A stretch of 44,662 bases of DNA from Vectrevirus T145P2: sequence record OZ035802.1. One strand, given 5' to 3'. This document shows positions 23,731 through 28,524 of this stretch, in pieces. The notes under the pieces are model-generated. The model was not told the DNA's origin. It saw only the letters and a program-made list of their open reading frames with translations, and searched no databases. Positions within the stretch are counted from its first letter, which is position 1, and each line of letters opens with the position of its first letter. Made by a program: the position numbers and the translations under genes.

Positions 23731-23757
23731 TATTTACTGGACACTATAGAAGAGAAG
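23731..23757 (+). promoter_or_regulatory. SP6-like phage promoter
   Basis: TATTTACTGGACACTATAGAAGAGAAG. Confidence 0.65.
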
Positions 23758-23804: not shown

Positions 23805-24176
23805 ATGTTCAAGATTGAAACTATCGTAAACCGTGTTGTTAAAGGTGCTGCTCTGGTATCCGTTGAGTCTTTCATTATCGTCGATGAAGCTGATCAACTG
23901 GTAGCTGGTACTAAGGCTTACGATACCCGTGAAGAAGCTCAGGCTAAGATTGACAGCATGGGTAACTTCGCTGCTGGTCTGGAGTTCGCTCGTGCTTGCT
24001 TCCCTGAGCAGGCTGACAAAGCCCAGATCGGGAAGGCTAACATCGTAGCTGAATATCTGGATTGGATTGCTGCTGGTAAACCAGTGAAAGAAGTTAAAGC
24101 TGCTGAAGAAGCTGAAGCTCCTGCAGTAGAAGTGTCTGCACCGGAAGCTCCGGTTAGCGAAGAGGAAGAGTTTTGA
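23805..24176 (+). CDS. hypothetical abundant-looking acidic protein (123 aa)
   Basis: AAGGAGA RBS; biased codon usage; own promoter and downstream terminator hairpin; C-terminal tail PVSEEEEF. Confidence 0.6.
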   Translation: MFKIETIVNRVVKGAALVSVESFIIVDEADQLVAGTKAYDTREEAQAKIDSMGNFAAGLEFARACFPEQADKAQIGKANIVAEYLDWIAAGKPVKEVKAAEEAEAPAVEVSAPEAPVSEEEEF

Positions 24177-24235
24177 TAATAGCAGGTGTAGCCTCTGTTA
24201 GTCCTAGTTGACTATCACGCTCACCTCATCTAATG

Positions 24236-24267
24236 CCCTGTCTGCCTTAGTGTAGGCAGGGTCTTTT
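24236..24267 (+). terminator. terminator-like hairpin plus T-run
   Basis: TCTGCC-TTAGTGTA-GGCAGG then GTCTTTTG; same architecture as the hairpin after the capsid gene. Confidence 0.45.
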
Positions 24268-24293: not shown

Positions 24294-24584
24294 ATGCCGA
24301 CTATTGAAGATCGTTTCCAGATTCACGCATCTTACTCGCCTATGCTTAGAGGTCATCTTATTACCATTAGATTAGATTATGAGTTGTATCTTGTAGATTA
24401 TTTATATACAGACTATGACTGCCAACGTAACATGGTGGGACCGATGAGGTGGGCGGCTGAGTGGGTGCGCGAGCACGTGCTGAAGGAGTGGCCTACATGC
24501 GACCAAACTTCGACTTCGGAGCTACAGTATCGGAAGACAATAATCTCATCCTGTGGCCGACTGAAGGTAATCGAATCGCTTTAA
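24294..24584 (+). CDS. hypothetical protein (96 aa) overlapping exonuclease start
   Basis: GGAGAATGAATT RBS; 3' end overlaps exonuclease coding sequence by ~88 nt in another frame. Confidence 0.35.
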   Translation: MPTIEDRFQIHASYSPMLRGHLITIRLDYELYLVDYLYTDYDCQRNMVGPMRWAAEWVREHVLKEWPTCDQTSTSELQYRKTIISSCGRLKVIESL

Positions 24585-25525
24585 TAGATGCCGATATGTT
24601 GCCTTACATCGTCGCGTATACAATCAGCGACATGACTTATGTACGAGCCATAACTCGTGTTAAGTCAGGACAAGTCCCATCAATCAAAGATACGCCTGAG
24701 TGTAAGCAAGCGTGTGACCGTGTGAACTCCTTGCTTAACTCTTGGGTGTATGCAGCAGAATGTGATGCAGCTAAGTTATTCATGACGAAATCAGAAGCTA
24801 ACTTCCGTGTCCGCCTAGCATTCACCAAGCCTTATAAAGGTCAACGTAAGACCGAGAAGCCTCCATTCTTCTATGAATTGCGAGAGCATCTCTTAGAGGT
24901 TCACGGTGCAATCTTGGCAGATGGAGAGGAAGCAGACGACCTCATGAGTATCGCACAATGGGACAGCCACCGCCGCTTCCAGCAAGATACAGGTAACGAG
25001 TTCCCTATCGGTAGTCCAGAGCATAAAGCATTCTCTGATACTTGCATCGTTTCCTTGGATAAGGATTTGATGATTGTTCCCGGTTGGCATCTACAGCCGG
25101 GTCAAGAGAAGAAGTGGGTAGAGCCTATGGGCTGGCTTGAGCTACGCCGTAAGGCTAATGGGCAAGTCAAAGATCTAAAAGGTGCTGGCCTCATGTTCCA
25201 CTATGCACAGATGATTATCGGTGATGATATTGATAACTATGCTGGCATACCAGGTCGTGGTGCTAAATATGCCTATGATCTTCTCAAAGGTTGTAAGACA
25301 GAGAAAGAATTGTACATGGCAGTGCTTGGTGCTTACAAAGCTAAGTTCGGTCATGGACAGGTTAAGATTAAGAATTACCGAGGTGGTTATCGGGTGGGCA
25401 AAGCCTTTGACCTTATGCTTGAATGCGGTCGCTTAGCTCACATGGCTAGGTTCAAAGGTGATATATGGCGAGCCGATAAGAACCCAATCTTGTGGGGAGA
25501 TGATGCGGAATGGTTAGCAAATTAA
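24497..25525 (+). CDS. 5'-3' exonuclease, FEN-like (T7 gp6-like)
   Basis: Acidic motifs IALIDADM, ADGEEADD, SLDKDL, IGDDIDNYAGIPGRG align with T7 gene 6 exonuclease as I recall it. Confidence 0.85.
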   Translation: MRPNFDFGATVSEDNNLILWPTEGNRIALIDADMLPYIVAYTISDMTYVRAITRVKSGQVPSIKDTPECKQACDRVNSLLNSWVYAAECDAAKLFMTKSEANFRVRLAFTKPYKGQRKTEKPPFFYELREHLLEVHGAILADGEEADDLMSIAQWDSHRRFQQDTGNEFPIGSPEHKAFSDTCIVSLDKDLMIVPGWHLQPGQEKKWVEPMGWLELRRKANGQVKDLKGAGLMFHYAQMIIGDDIDNYAGIPGRGAKYAYDLLKGCKTEKELYMAVLGAYKAKFGHGQVKIKNYRGGYRVGKAFDLMLECGRLAHMARFKGDIWRADKNPILWGDDAEWLAN

Positions 25526-25923
25526 AAGCATCGGAGGTGGCAGCTTATAAGAAGGAATTGCTAGATAAGCAAGGATGGAAATGCCCTCTGTGTGGTGGCA
25601 GTCTCAAAGCTGTCACACCTGTAAACCGTGTACTTGACCATGACCATGAGACAGGATTCTGCCGTGCTGTTGTATGCCGAGGTTGCAATGGTGCGGAAGG
25701 GAAGATTAAGGGTGTTATCTCTGGTTATGGCAAGGCGGGTAATAACCGTTACTTCCAGCTTCAATGGTTAGAGAGATTGTACGAATACTGGAAGTTACAT
25801 AGTACGCCTCAGACAGATAAGTTATATCACAAACATCAAACGGAGGCAGAGAAGCGCGAGGCTAAGAACCGTAAGGCACGCCTTGCTTATGCAAGAAAGA
25901 AGAAGGAGGTTAAAGTTGGGTAA
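25510..25923 (+). CDS. endonuclease VII-like Holliday junction resolvase
   Basis: CPLCGG...DHDHETGFCRAVVCRGCN matches the T4 endonuclease VII zinc-binding/catalytic signature. Confidence 0.75.
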   Translation: MVSKLKASEVAAYKKELLDKQGWKCPLCGGSLKAVTPVNRVLDHDHETGFCRAVVCRGCNGAEGKIKGVISGYGKAGNNRYFQLQWLERLYEYWKLHSTPQTDKLYHKHQTEAEKREAKNRKARLAYARKKKEVKVG

Positions 25924-26923
25924 GCTTCGCAGCTTGTACAAAGACTCCGAGGTACTTGATGCAATCGAGCAAGCTACCGACGAGAAAGGTAATGTTAACT
26001 ACAACGAGATGGCACGGGTATTATCGTGTCACCCTGTGGGTAAGAAGATTACCCGCCAGTTGGCTCGATACTGGCATGGTCAATTCAAGAAGACCAAGAA
26101 GAATGGTGATTACTACCAGACTCTTCTGCAAGAGGATAAGCGTATCAAAGAAGAGCGTAAGCTCAGGACTCCTGACCGCTACGAGGATTTGGCTATTGTA
26201 CCACTGCCTGACTCGCCTCATCGAAGTGTACTGGTAATCCCTGACACTCATGCACCTTACGAGCACCCAGATACCTTAGAGTTTCTGGCAGCGGTGGCAG
26301 CACGTTACCGTCCAGACACTGTAGTTCATCTGGGGGATGAGGCAGATAAACATGCCTTATCGTTCCACGATTCAGACCCCAATCTGGATAGTGCTGGCAT
26401 GGAGTTAGAGAAGGCCCGTGTCTTTATGCATAAATTACACAAGATGTTTCCTGTGATGCGCCTGTGTCATTCTAATCACGGCTCTATGCACTTCCGTAAG
26501 GCAAGCGCTAAGGGTATCCCTGTGCAATACTTGCGTACCTATCGAGAAGTCTTCTTTCCGCATGGGGGTGGCGACCAGTGGGATTGGCAGCATACACACG
26601 TTCTTGAGTTGCCGAATGGTGAACAGGTTGCATTTAAGCATCAACCAGCAGGCTCAGTCTTAGCAGATGCAGCGCATGAGCGCATGAACTTAGTGTGCGG
26701 TCACTTGCATGGTAAGATGTCGGTGGAGTATGCACGTAACACACATGAACAGTATTGGGCTGTGCAGGGCGGCTGTCTGATTGATGAGTCATCTCGTGCA
26801 TTTGCCTATGGTCGTGAGTCCAAATACAAGCCAGCATTAGGTTGTGTGGTTATTCTGGAGGGTGTGCCGCACATTGTCCCGATGCAGACCAATAGTGACA
26901 ATCGCTGGATTGGTAAGATTTAG
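25916..26923 (+). CDS. calcineurin-like metallophosphoesterase
   Basis: Motifs IPDTHAPY, HLGDEAD, HSNHG, CGHLHG in canonical order; start likely TTG after AAGGAGG (an upstream ATG at 25883 runs through rare AGA/AGG codons). Confidence 0.7.
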   Translation: MGKLRSLYKDSEVLDAIEQATDEKGNVNYNEMARVLSCHPVGKKITRQLARYWHGQFKKTKKNGDYYQTLLQEDKRIKEERKLRTPDRYEDLAIVPLPDSPHRSVLVIPDTHAPYEHPDTLEFLAAVAARYRPDTVVHLGDEADKHALSFHDSDPNLDSAGMELEKARVFMHKLHKMFPVMRLCHSNHGSMHFRKASAKGIPVQYLRTYREVFFPHGGGDQWDWQHTHVLELPNGEQVAFKHQPAGSVLADAAHERMNLVCGHLHGKMSVEYARNTHEQYWAVQGGCLIDESSRAFAYGRESKYKPALGCVVILEGVPHIVPMQTNSDNRWIGKI

Positions 26924-26940
26924 TTGACACTATAGAACAA
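26917..26940 (+). promoter_or_regulatory. SP6-like phage promoter overlapping 3' end of phosphoesterase gene
   Basis: GATTTAGTTGACACTATAGAACAA. Confidence 0.55.
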
Positions 26941-26991: not shown

Positions 26992-27462
26992 ATGTCAAAG
27001 ATTTATATTGGCGAATACGTCGTACGCCGTGCAGCTTACCGAGATGCCTTCTGGAATAAACTGTGTGAAAGCCTAGGCAAGAAACCAGATGGGGTATTCA
27101 AAGTATCCCGTGCAGAACCTAATTATAACTCTATTATGTTAGAAGGTGTTGAGAAGCGCGAATGGTATGCACCTTACTTCAAGGTTGTTGACTCATTGCA
27201 AGATGAAGATCCTAGCACGTTGGACAACAATATGGTTACTAAGCCTAAGCACTATGAGTTCTTCGATGGGGTAGAGGCAATCACTATCATTGCTCGTAGT
27301 ATGACCGAGAAGCAATTTGCTGGATATTGCATGGGTAATGCTTTGAAGTATCGTCTGCGTGCAGGGAAGAAATTCAACACGGAAGAAGATCTGAAGAAAG
27401 CAGACTACTACAAAGAGCTATTCCAGAAGCATCGTCACGAATGTATTGATGAGGATATTTAA
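26992..27462 (+). CDS. hypothetical protein (156 aa)
   Basis: GGAGGAATT RBS; KPKHYEFFDGVEAITII...GNALKYRLRAG segment resembles a phage domain of unknown function. Confidence 0.55.
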   Translation: MSKIYIGEYVVRRAAYRDAFWNKLCESLGKKPDGVFKVSRAEPNYNSIMLEGVEKREWYAPYFKVVDSLQDEDPSTLDNNMVTKPKHYEFFDGVEAITIIARSMTEKQFAGYCMGNALKYRLRAGKKFNTEEDLKKADYYKELFQKHRHECIDEDI

Positions 27463-27463
27463 T

Positions 27464-27580
27464 ATGACTTGTCCTAATTGTGGAAGTGAAGAAACAGAAC
27501 ATGTAGTTATGTCAGATACTTATCATTTCTACTTCTGTCATAGCTGCGACACCACCATTGAAGAGGAAGAAGCTGTATGA
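27464..27580 (+). CDS. hypothetical zinc-ribbon mini-protein (38 aa)
   Basis: CPNCGS...CHSCD; overlaps ligase start. Confidence 0.35.
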   Translation: MTCPNCGSEETEHVVMSDTYHFYFCHSCDTTIEEEEAV

Positions 27581-28524
27581 ATATATTCCAATTCCTAGGT
27601 CTTCCAGAAGACCACCGCAATCACCCATTCATGCTGGTGAAACATCGCGGTGAAGTACCTGAGAAGAAATTAACTTTTCCATGTTATGCACAGGTAAAAC
27701 GAGATGGTATATTTAGTGCTGTGGTTGTTCGCAACGATGGTGTCGTTGGTATCTTTGGACGCACTGGAAAGAAACTGGCTAACACGGAAACCTTGGAAGA
27801 ATCTTATTCAGCTTTCCCTACTGGCATTTATCTCGGTGAGTTGCAATCTATGGCTATTGATGTCTACCTTGAAGCACTTTCTGGAGTAGTTAACCCTAAC
27901 CGCACTGAGCCACTGGATTTCATAGGCCAGCAGATTAAAGACAACCTGTATATCGACTTCTTCGATATGTTAACCATTAAGGCATTCCATGATGGATTCA
28001 CTGATGTTTCTTATCTCAAACGTTACGATGCTTTACATCGTCGCATCGGCGCTCATCTTAGCGGGTACAACGCTATCCTTCCTATTACTCCTTGCCATAA
28101 TGAGCGAGAAGTTGAAGCGTTTGCGCAAGAGCAAATAGACGCAGGCCGAGAGGGTGCTGTGTTTAAACTGGACTGTGATTATGAAGCAGGCCACAAAGGT
28201 TATCGTCAGACTAAAGAAGTCCGTAAGGTAACTTATGACCTTACTTGTATTGGCTTTGAAGAAGGCAAAGGTAAGTACAAAGGTAAGGTAGCTAACCTCA
28301 TTTTCAAATGGAAAGGGGGCAAGACAATCAAAGCTATGTTAGGTAAAGGGTGGACTCATGCAGATGCAGAACAGATGTTCCACGATATTAAACATGGTGG
28401 ACGATTGAATGTCATTGGTAAAATCTTTGAAGTAAAAGGTCTTCAGGATTCAAGCAAGGGCAACATTCGTCTGCCCAAAGCGGGAGAATTAAGACATGAC
28501 AAAGATGAACCAGACTTCTTTTGA
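27577..28524 (+). CDS. ATP-dependent DNA ligase
   Basis: 315 aa; adenylation motif KRDG (AQVKRDGIFSAVV) and overall nucleotidyltransferase-like layout. Confidence 0.8.
   Translation: MNIFQFLGLPEDHRNHPFMLVKHRGEVPEKKLTFPCYAQVKRDGIFSAVVVRNDGVVGIFGRTGKKLANTETLEESYSAFPTGIYLGELQSMAIDVYLEALSGVVNPNRTEPLDFIGQQIKDNLYIDFFDMLTIKAFHDGFTDVSYLKRYDALHRRIGAHLSGYNAILPITPCHNEREVEAFAQEQIDAGREGAVFKLDCDYEAGHKGYRQTKEVRKVTYDLTCIGFEEGKGKYKGKVANLIFKWKGGKTIKAMLGKGWTHADAEQMFHDIKHGGRLNVIGKIFEVKGLQDSSKGNIRLPKAGELRHDKDEPDFF

Follow-up and report, generated by a model that had tools for sequence, protein, structure and literature searches.

Which reaction does the metallophosphoesterase (MPE) of SP6/K1E-like phages catalyze, and on which substrate? 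The question is raised by a 44,662-nt sequence of Vectrevirus T145P2 (OZ035802.1; the whole stretch is called the window in the following), in which a first-pass annotation had noticed an MPE gene downstream of the resolvase gene. A real, well-conserved phage MPE gene was confirmed at this position, and its product is predicted from its sequence to be an active two-metal (Mn2+/Mg2+-type) phosphodiesterase. With a probability of roughly 0.5, the MPE is a DNA nuclease that depends on metal ions and belongs to the replication/recombination block. This explanation is set out below together with four other conceivable functions, each of which is discussed with the evidence that bears on it.

Catalytic domain and family relationship

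All five motifs of calcineurin-like MPEs (DxH / GDxxD / GNH[DE] / H / GHxH) are present in canonical order (Table 1), in agreement with the first-pass annotation. The Pfam profile Metallophos (PF00149) matches amino acids 105-246 with 23 bits, barely above its gathering score of 21.5, and the beta-sandwich MPE fold of this superfamily was found. The PHROGs family phrog_221 'metallo-phosphoesterase' matches the protein over its full length (E=3.2e-105, profile positions 16-358). Conservation was assessed in a close alignment of 31 relatives with 48-87% identity and in a distant alignment of 84 catalytic domains with 34-54% identity. Conservation of the metal ligands had been proposed earlier as a check of the assignment, and every canonical ligand is indeed invariant in the 31 relatives (D110, H112, G140, D141, D144, N187, H188, H242, G262, H263, and H265), while the core metal ligands remain invariant across the 84 distant domains. 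Further invariant residues of the close relatives are specific for the family, namely H117, D119, E142, H146, S149, H151, C184, R194, and H254.

A protein Ser/Thr phosphatase reversing the phosphorylation of host or phage proteins, comparable to lambda phosphatase, would belong to the same superfamily, and the name 'protein phosphatase 2a-like protein' is given to the orthologue in some database records. In the window MPE, the PPP signatures GDxHG, GDxVDRG, and GNHE are replaced by PDTHAP, GDEADKH, and SNHG, the Arg and Gly that PPP enzymes conserve in motif II are missing, as is their Glu in motif III, and no PPP profile matches the protein. A protein phosphatase, which had been among the functions suggested in the first-pass annotation, is very improbable on these grounds.

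In some metagenomic relatives, the catalytic domain is interrupted by intein-like inserts of ~250-300 amino acids, one of them with a LAGLIDADG domain. The inserts are located directly after DLH of motif I (P0164) or after GDE of motif II (P0121, P0169), and the first extein residue past the insert is Cys in all three proteins. Inteins in motifs I and II fit a functionally important active site and are typical of important replication-type enzymes. This bears on the idea of a mainly non-enzymatic accessory protein that acts in replication or recombination by contacts with other proteins, for which the inactive B-subunits of eukaryotic polymerases with their MPE fold, Vps29, and the integrase-binding role of the mycobacteriophage Bxb1 protein gp47 as recombination directionality factor (RDF) serve as precedents. 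In contrast to the degenerate sites of B-subunits and Vps29, the metal ligands of the MPE are invariant in >100 diverse sequences, and it is the catalytic motifs that are targeted by the inteins. In addition, mycobacteriophage enzymes of the same family lose their function upon mutation of catalytic motifs (see below). The phage of the window has a lytic lifestyle, and an integrase was not recognized among its large open reading frames (ORFs), most of which were not scanned. The probability of a non-enzymatic function is rated as low as that of a protein phosphatase.

The closest experimentally studied relatives of the MPE were found among mycobacteriophage proteins. Bxb1 gp47 also matches phrog_221 (E=4.5e-116, profile positions 110-363). 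A hidden Markov model (HMM) built from the distant relatives of the window protein gave 43 bits for gp47, with an alignment reaching from motif I through the GCLID segment, and comparison of the 84-sequence profile with gp47 by hhalign resulted in a probability of 97.5% (E=4.9e-12, 204 columns). Because this profile, when compared with all PDB sequences, reaches at most 12 bits for any MPE of solved structure, the kinship with gp47 is specific and goes beyond the superfamily level. The MPE protein itself, used directly as query against the PDB sequences, gave no match, so that a close relative of solved structure is lacking. The profile comparisons thus place the window MPE in a phage-specific MPE clade, phrog_221, together with Bxb1 gp47 and L5 gp54.

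In the fold-neighbour ranking, the highest scores were obtained for the PolD DP1 proofreading exonuclease (13.7), MJ0936 (13.3), and YfcE (13.1), followed by the Pol delta B-subunit (12.3), Vps29 (11.9), and LpxH, SbcD, and Mre11 (about 11.3), while PPP protein phosphatases reached 9.9 or less and the phosphatase domain of Clostridium thermocellum Pnkp 8.9. Identification of the MPE with DP1 was rejected, as its N-terminal domain is helical and helix-turn-helix (HTH)-like instead of an OB fold, and as the phage has a family A polymerase and no DP2 partner. An Mre11/SbcD-like nuclease had also been suggested in the first-pass annotation. Of this suggestion, the nuclease is retained as the favoured function, but not the subfamily: the MPE domain extends to the last amino acid (335) and is followed by no capping or DNA-binding C-terminal domain, and no Mre11_DNA_bind or SbcD profile matches. 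Regarding a Rad50/SbcC-type partner, no ORF of the size of a coiled-coil ATPase adjoins the MPE gene, and none was found among the identified genes of the window.

The strongest in-silico hint of DNA as substrate or working site comes from N-terminal fusions within the family. A confident AlphaFold2 model based on the 31-sequence alignment (mean predicted local distance difference test score, pLDDT, 85.3; predicted template modelling score, pTM, 0.76) shows a helical N-terminal part, a linker, and, from about residue 101 on, an alpha/beta domain. According to this model, the N-terminal domain would adopt a three-helix HTH-like fold. It resembles tri-helical HTH DNA-binding domains, and Y52, W53, and Q56 of its third helix are invariant; no significant Pfam match was obtained for 26 such domains. 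A HMMER search of 1.84 billion cluster representatives yielded 1705 clusters. Because most of these matches are ~235 amino acids long and cover residues 102-335 only, the catalytic domain is regarded as an autonomous unit and the N-terminal domain as an addition of the SP6-like lineage. In KP34-like proteins, the N-terminal domain is common only from about residue 45 on. Other N-terminal extensions are found in 57 relatives, in which Pfam domains known from DNA-binding proteins recur: HTH_23 in 13, HTH_38 in 8, HTH_SB in 6, HTH_3 and HTH_28 in 4 each, HTH_psq in 3, and HNH_repeat, a DNA-binding repeat of homing endonucleases, in 3 (these counts may overlap within one protein). It is this repeated and independent fusion of DNA-binding modules to the catalytic domain that hints at DNA.

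Identity, start codon, and annotation of the gene

Over the 2.2 kb around the MPE gene, identity amounts to 99.4% with the Escherichia phages Phi100-A and vB_EcoP-UTI89UKE2/3 and to 97% with K1E. The region matches 99 phage records, nearly all of them SP6/K1E-like Autographiviridae of the genus Vectrevirus, and the window can be assigned to a K1E-like Vectrevirus. The MPE protein is 94.3% identical to that of SP6 (tblastn) and up to 99.7% identical to those of other Vectrevirus records, and the gene is the orthologue of SP6 gene 22. Compared with SP6, 123 of its codons differ synonymously and 18 nonsynonymously, and third codon positions account for 126 of the 163 nucleotide differences; compared with LL11, there are 72 synonymous and only 2 nonsynonymous changes. 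These ratios clearly point to purifying selection. Minus-strand ORFs of 41-81 amino acids within the gene were set aside for want of support. T7 had been said to have no such gene, and neither tblastn nor the family HMM found an MPE homologue in the six frames of NC_001604. The window is as long as a complete Vectrevirus genome, and the gene is located at 25.9 kb, compared with 16-17 kb in the SP6 and LL11 records; the record of Phi100-A has the same layout as the window. The differing start point suggests a circularly permuted assembly start.

Translation from TTG 25916, as proposed in the first-pass annotation, is supported by comparison with other phages. In the window, the sequence is exactly as had been described: an in-frame ATG at 25889 is followed by CAA GAA AGA AGA AGG AGG TTA AAG and then by TTG 25916, so that the AGGAGG ribosome-binding site lies within this reading frame. 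SP6 retains AAGGAGGGTAAAG-TTG, has ATA at the position of ATG 25889, and has 50 open codons upstream without any ATG, GTG, or TTG. Aeromonas phage Aer_P220 has ATG at the codon homologous to TTG, preceded by only 3 open codons and a stop. Because SP6 has the same TTG without any other upstream start and Aer_P220 has ATG at the homologous codon, the TTG start is favoured. The same Shine-Dalgarno arrangement is present in SP6, LL11, and K1E. Among the 120 homologues listed of 2805 matches, nearly all are ~335 amino acids long, cover the query to ~100% from residue 1, and begin with M-[GAS]-K-[LIV]-R. Counted from TTG 25916 on the plus strand, the gene comprises 1008 nt, and a 1008-nt coding sequence (CDS) is likewise annotated for this gene in the LL11 RefSeq record and in SP6 (CDS '22'). 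A longer ORF from TTG 25883 or ATG 25889 was rejected, as this ATG is not kept in SP6, which offers no alternative start.

The gene is already known and is not a discovery of this analysis: at least 645 phage records carry it, many of them annotated as (metallo)phosphoesterase. Besides the 'protein phosphatase 2a-like protein' mentioned above, the label 'deoxynucleotide monophosphate kinase' is also in use for the orthologue. In the record of UTI89UKE2 (MZ234049, 1882-3024), an overlong 'phosphoesterase' CDS of 1143 nt starts from an ATG 135 nt upstream within the endonuclease VII gene, which itself is left unannotated. This CDS was rejected as it runs across the endonuclease VII gene in a different frame, and it is a mis-annotation. 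Frameshifted copies in close relatives led to the consideration of gene decay. In Phi100-A, the closest relative of the window (PQ476009; record UNVERIFIED and unannotated), an extra G in a G5 run at the window-equivalent position 26563 shifts the frame of the MPE gene, which is probably a homopolymer sequencing error. A second case, in K1E, is discussed below.

Gene neighbourhood and nucleotide-related alternatives

The coordinates of the MPE gene, its domains and motifs, and the surrounding features are compiled in Table 1.

Table 1. Features of the MPE locus and related elements in the window
Feature	Position	Strand	Remarks
MPE gene	25916..26923	+	335 amino acids plus stop; TTG start, TAG stop 26921-26923; SP6 gene 22 orthologue
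Shine-Dalgarno sequence AAGGAGGT	25903..25910	+	5 nt before TTG start; within last endonuclease VII codons
N-terminal domain	25916..26170	+	amino acids 1 to ~85; helices 10-20, 29-37, 47-57, 71-80
Catalytic MPE domain	26216..26920	+	amino acids 101-335; stand-alone protein of ~235 amino acids in most distant relatives
Motif I, D110-T-H112	26243..26251	+	invariant in 31 relatives; D110 aligns with Bxb1 gp47 D10
Motif II, G140-D141-E142-A-D144-K-H146	26333..26353	+	G140, D141, E142, D144, H146 invariant
Motif III, S186-N187-H188-G189	26471..26482	+	invariant; equivalent of GNH[DE]
Motif IV, H242	26639..26641	+	invariant
Motif V, G262-H263-L-H265	26699..26710	+	invariant; aligns with GHTH of Bxb1 gp47
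5'-3' exonuclease gene	24497..25525	+	ORF; weak PF01367 match; start inferred from 1029-nt CDS of relatives
Endonuclease VII (resolvase) gene	25510..25923	+	upstream neighbour; PF02945, E=1.6e-12
SP6-type RNA polymerase promoter ATTTAGTTGACACTATAGAAC	26918..26938	+	overlaps MPE stop; ATTTAG contains TAG
Other SP6-type promoters	3889, 10763, 17017, 17865, 21818, 23732, 32000	+	
DUF3310/T7 gp1.7-like nucleotide kinase gene	26992..27462	+	PF11753, E=3e-25; phrog_1689 'nucleotide kinase'; 471-nt CDS in relatives
Zinc-ribbon-like ORF	27446-27580	+	44 amino acids; two CxxC pairs; overlaps DUF3310 end and ligase start
ATP-dependent DNA ligase gene	27577..28524	+	PF01068, PF14743

The MPE gene lies within a replication/recombination block, as had been stated in the first-pass annotation, with exonuclease, endonuclease VII, and ligase genes around it. 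The exonuclease annotation is carried at this position by LL11, UTI89UKE2, and other records. The exonuclease gene overlaps the start of the endonuclease VII gene by 16 nt, and the endonuclease VII gene, which ends with TAA, shares its last 8 nt with the start of the MPE gene. These overlaps suggest that the three genes form a translationally coupled trio. Eight sites of the window, each of them on the plus strand, match the SP6 promoter consensus (core GACACTATAG), while 0 are expected by chance. Because one of these promoters overlaps the stop codon of the MPE gene, this gene closes an exonuclease - endonuclease VII - MPE unit, which begins at or before the promoter at 23732. A strong terminator-like hairpin with an 11-bp stem and a T-rich tail is located at 24235-24262 on the plus strand, after an ORF of 123 amino acids (23805-24176) and upstream of the exonuclease gene.

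The genes for the DUF3310 kinase, the zinc-ribbon-like protein, and the ligase form a group downstream of the promoter at 26918. The MPE gene had been described as lying between the resolvase and the ligase gene. This holds for the upstream side, where endonuclease VII is the direct neighbour, whereas on the downstream side the promoter, the kinase gene, and the zinc-ribbon ORF precede the ligase gene. In K1E and UTI89UKE2, the zinc-ribbon ORF is annotated at the same place as a shorter hypothetical CDS of 117 nt, whereas SP6 and LL11 do not have it; its PHROG matches are weak, and one of the families matched bears the label 'DNA ligase'.

Molineuxvirinae (SP6, K1E, LL11), Colwellvirinae (uligo), Melnykvirinae (Ahp1), Corkvirinae (CB5, interrupted by small inserts), and an Aeromonas phage without subfamily assignment have the gene order exonuclease - endonuclease VII - MPE in common. 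In KP34 (Slopekvirinae), the MPE gene comes after the DNA polymerase gene. In other phages and metagenomic contigs, it is located beside genes for D5-type primase/helicase, Erf, ligase, ribonucleotide reductase, MazG, NT5C, or thymidylate synthase. In Aeromonas phages, the MPE gene is followed by genes for a HAD-type PNKP 3'-phosphatase, a P-loop kinase-like protein, and a ligase. The slot after the MPE gene thus holds non-homologous kinase-type genes, the DUF3310 kinase in SP6/K1E-like phages versus a split PNKP in Aeromonas phages.

The neighbouring kinase draws attention to a function on small molecules. As a phosphodiesterase for nucleotides or other small compounds, comparable to YfcE/MJ0936, ApaH, or cyclic-nucleotide phosphodiesterases, the MPE could serve in nucleotide salvage or, by destroying a signalling nucleotide of the host, in counter-defence. 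Such an activity is compatible with the fold neighbours, and the nearby nucleotide kinase would fit. The tightest linkage of the gene, however, is to the exonuclease and endonuclease VII genes, and the promoter stands between it and the kinase gene. Moreover, the recurrent N-terminal fusions with DNA-binding domains are hard to account for by a small-molecule substrate, and the studied relatives act on DNA replication and DNA integrity. Assignment to YfcE (TIGR00040) was rejected with 11 bits versus an NCBIfam cutoff of 56, and a search with the defence-system models of PADLOC gave no match to the MPE. Altogether, a small-molecule phosphodiesterase is unlikely, although it is the alternative with the largest share of the remaining probability.

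The vicinity of kinase and ligase genes is also reminiscent of bacterial Pnkp, the MPE domain of which heals DNA or RNA ends together with kinase and ligase activities; in an analogous way, the phage MPE could be an end-healing 3'-phosphatase or 2',3'-cyclic phosphodiesterase. The neighbouring kinase belongs to the gp1.7-type deoxynucleoside monophosphate kinase family and is not a polynucleotide kinase, and the dedicated HAD-type PNKP 3'-phosphatase after the MPE in Aeromonas phages would make the MPE redundant in this role. KP34 keeps the MPE gene, and no kinase or ligase is annotated within the 3 kb inspected on either side of it. Pnkp ranks far below DP1, YfcE, and Mre11 among the fold neighbours, and PdeM (TIGR04123), the ligase-associated DNA damage response endonuclease, was rejected with 18.8 bits versus a cutoff of 150 and only 33 residues aligned around motifs I-II. 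End healing is therefore considered quite improbable.

Proposed function and comparison with known systems

If the MPE is a DNA nuclease, the following course can be envisaged. The protein would be made in the middle phase of infection, that of DNA metabolism, from the last, probably translationally coupled and co-transcribed gene of the exonuclease - endonuclease VII - MPE unit. Its N-terminal domain may hold it on DNA or on a partner in replication, and the binuclear centre would hydrolyze DNA phosphodiester bonds as an exonuclease, an endonuclease, or both. Its role could be the processing of replication or recombination intermediates, the breakdown of the host chromosome to nucleotides for phage DNA synthesis, or both of these.

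Several points weigh against a DNA nuclease. The identity of gp47 to the window MPE is only ~20%, and members of one PHROG family, being clustered by remote homology, can differ in their substrates. Bxb1 gp47 showed no DNA binding (PMC1470463), and for its weak exonuclease activity contaminating nucleases were not excluded by the authors (PMC11795197). In literature searches, no functional study of the SP6, K1E, or KP34 orthologues was found. Finally, one nucleotide is deleted in the K1E record KY435490 at ~2580 (window ~26480; CACGGC -> CAC-GC) within the codons N187-H188-G189 of motif III, which splits the MPE gene into two annotated CDS. This is either a sequencing error or, if real, an indication that the MPE is dispensable in the laboratory.

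A broader proposal is put forward tentatively and is possible rather than probable: MPEs with an HTH-like domain and their relatives would represent a conserved core nuclease of DNA metabolism that is common to mycobacteriophages (gp47/gp54) and five subfamilies of Autographiviridae. Such a nuclease could be needed directly for replication, for instance in the processing of ends, flaps, or mismatches together with the exonuclease and endonuclease VII. Alternatively, it could shred the host chromosome and thereby feed nucleotide salvage and silence inducible defences, as for gp48 of mycobacteriophage A10ZJ24. T7 would reach the same ends by endonuclease I and the gene 6 exonuclease alone.

The first-pass annotation was thus supported in part; it had not included the orthology to SP6 gene 22, the HTH-like N-terminal domain, or the relatives gp47 and gp54. 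Beyond this, the labels Mre11/SbcD, PPP, PdeM, and YfcE were excluded, and the link to gp47/gp48 joins two unconnected bodies of work, that on the 'phosphoesterase' of SP6/K1E-like phages and that on Bxb1 gp47 and A10ZJ24 gp48, the only members of the clade with genetics and biochemistry. For SP6/K1E-like phages, this leads to the hypothesis that the MPE is a DNA nuclease on which replication and/or the breakdown of host DNA depends. Carriers of the gene include many therapeutic candidates against Escherichia coli K1, Klebsiella, Proteus, and Pectobacterium, and by analogy to mycobacteriophages the gene may influence host range. In addition, GenBank mis-annotations can be corrected, namely 'PP2A-like phosphatase', 'deoxynucleotide monophosphate kinase', the overlong CDS, and the split CDS.

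Among known systems, the orthologues in Molineuxvirinae are the closest. SP6 gene 22 and its counterparts in K1E, K1-5, LL11, and others are the same gene with the same TTG and the same position after the endonuclease VII gene, without any substantive difference.

Functional information comes from the mycobacteriophage proteins. Bxb1 gp47 has been described as the RDF of the Bxb1 serine integrase, but homologues also occur in phages with tyrosine integrases, such as gp54 of L5 and D29, and the gp47 gene sits between the polymerase and primase genes (PMC1470463). In a later study, gp47 is reported as necessary for the replication of phage DNA (PMC11795197). Its predicted structure is similar to Mre11 and DP1, and the purified protein has limited Mn2+/Mg2+-dependent 3' exonuclease activity (PMC11795197). 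The homologue of gp47 in the Cluster A mycobacteriophage A10ZJ24, the MPE gp48, was characterized in 2025 (PMC12287305). It acts as a phosphodiesterase, and its substrates in vitro include linear, plasmid, and genomic DNA, all of which it degrades. It is toxic, breaks the host chromosome into pieces in vivo, and is necessary for the replication of phage DNA in Mycobacterium tuberculosis but not in M. smegmatis. These effects are abolished by the exchanges D10G, D41V, and H175D (PMC12287305). D10 and D41 of gp48 correspond to D110 and D141 of the window MPE, with a spacing of 31 residues in both proteins.

Bxb1 gp47, L5 gp54, and A10ZJ24 gp48 share the PHROG family with the window MPE, and their catalytic domains align with it end to end. 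Their genes, like that of the window MPE, belong to a block of replication genes, and the phage likewise codes for endonuclease VII; in Bxb1, the endonuclease VII, primase, and polymerase genes are found near gp47. In contrast to the window MPE, the mycobacteriophage proteins have no N-terminal HTH-like domain, lack H146, S149, and H151 of the GDExDxHAxSFH segment, and have DTQ instead of DxH as motif I. The role of gp47 in integrase directionality has no counterpart in this lytic phage.

Cellular MPEs are more distant. DP1, the small subunit of archaeal PolD with 3'-5' exonuclease activity, has 12% identity to the window MPE and differs by its OB-fold domain and its DP2 partner, while the family A DNA polymerase of the phage is a separate protein of 852 amino acids. 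Mre11/SbcD have 13-16% identity. YfcE/MJ0936 are small proteins of 165-184 amino acids without extra domains, unlike the window MPE with its HTH-like N-terminal domain.

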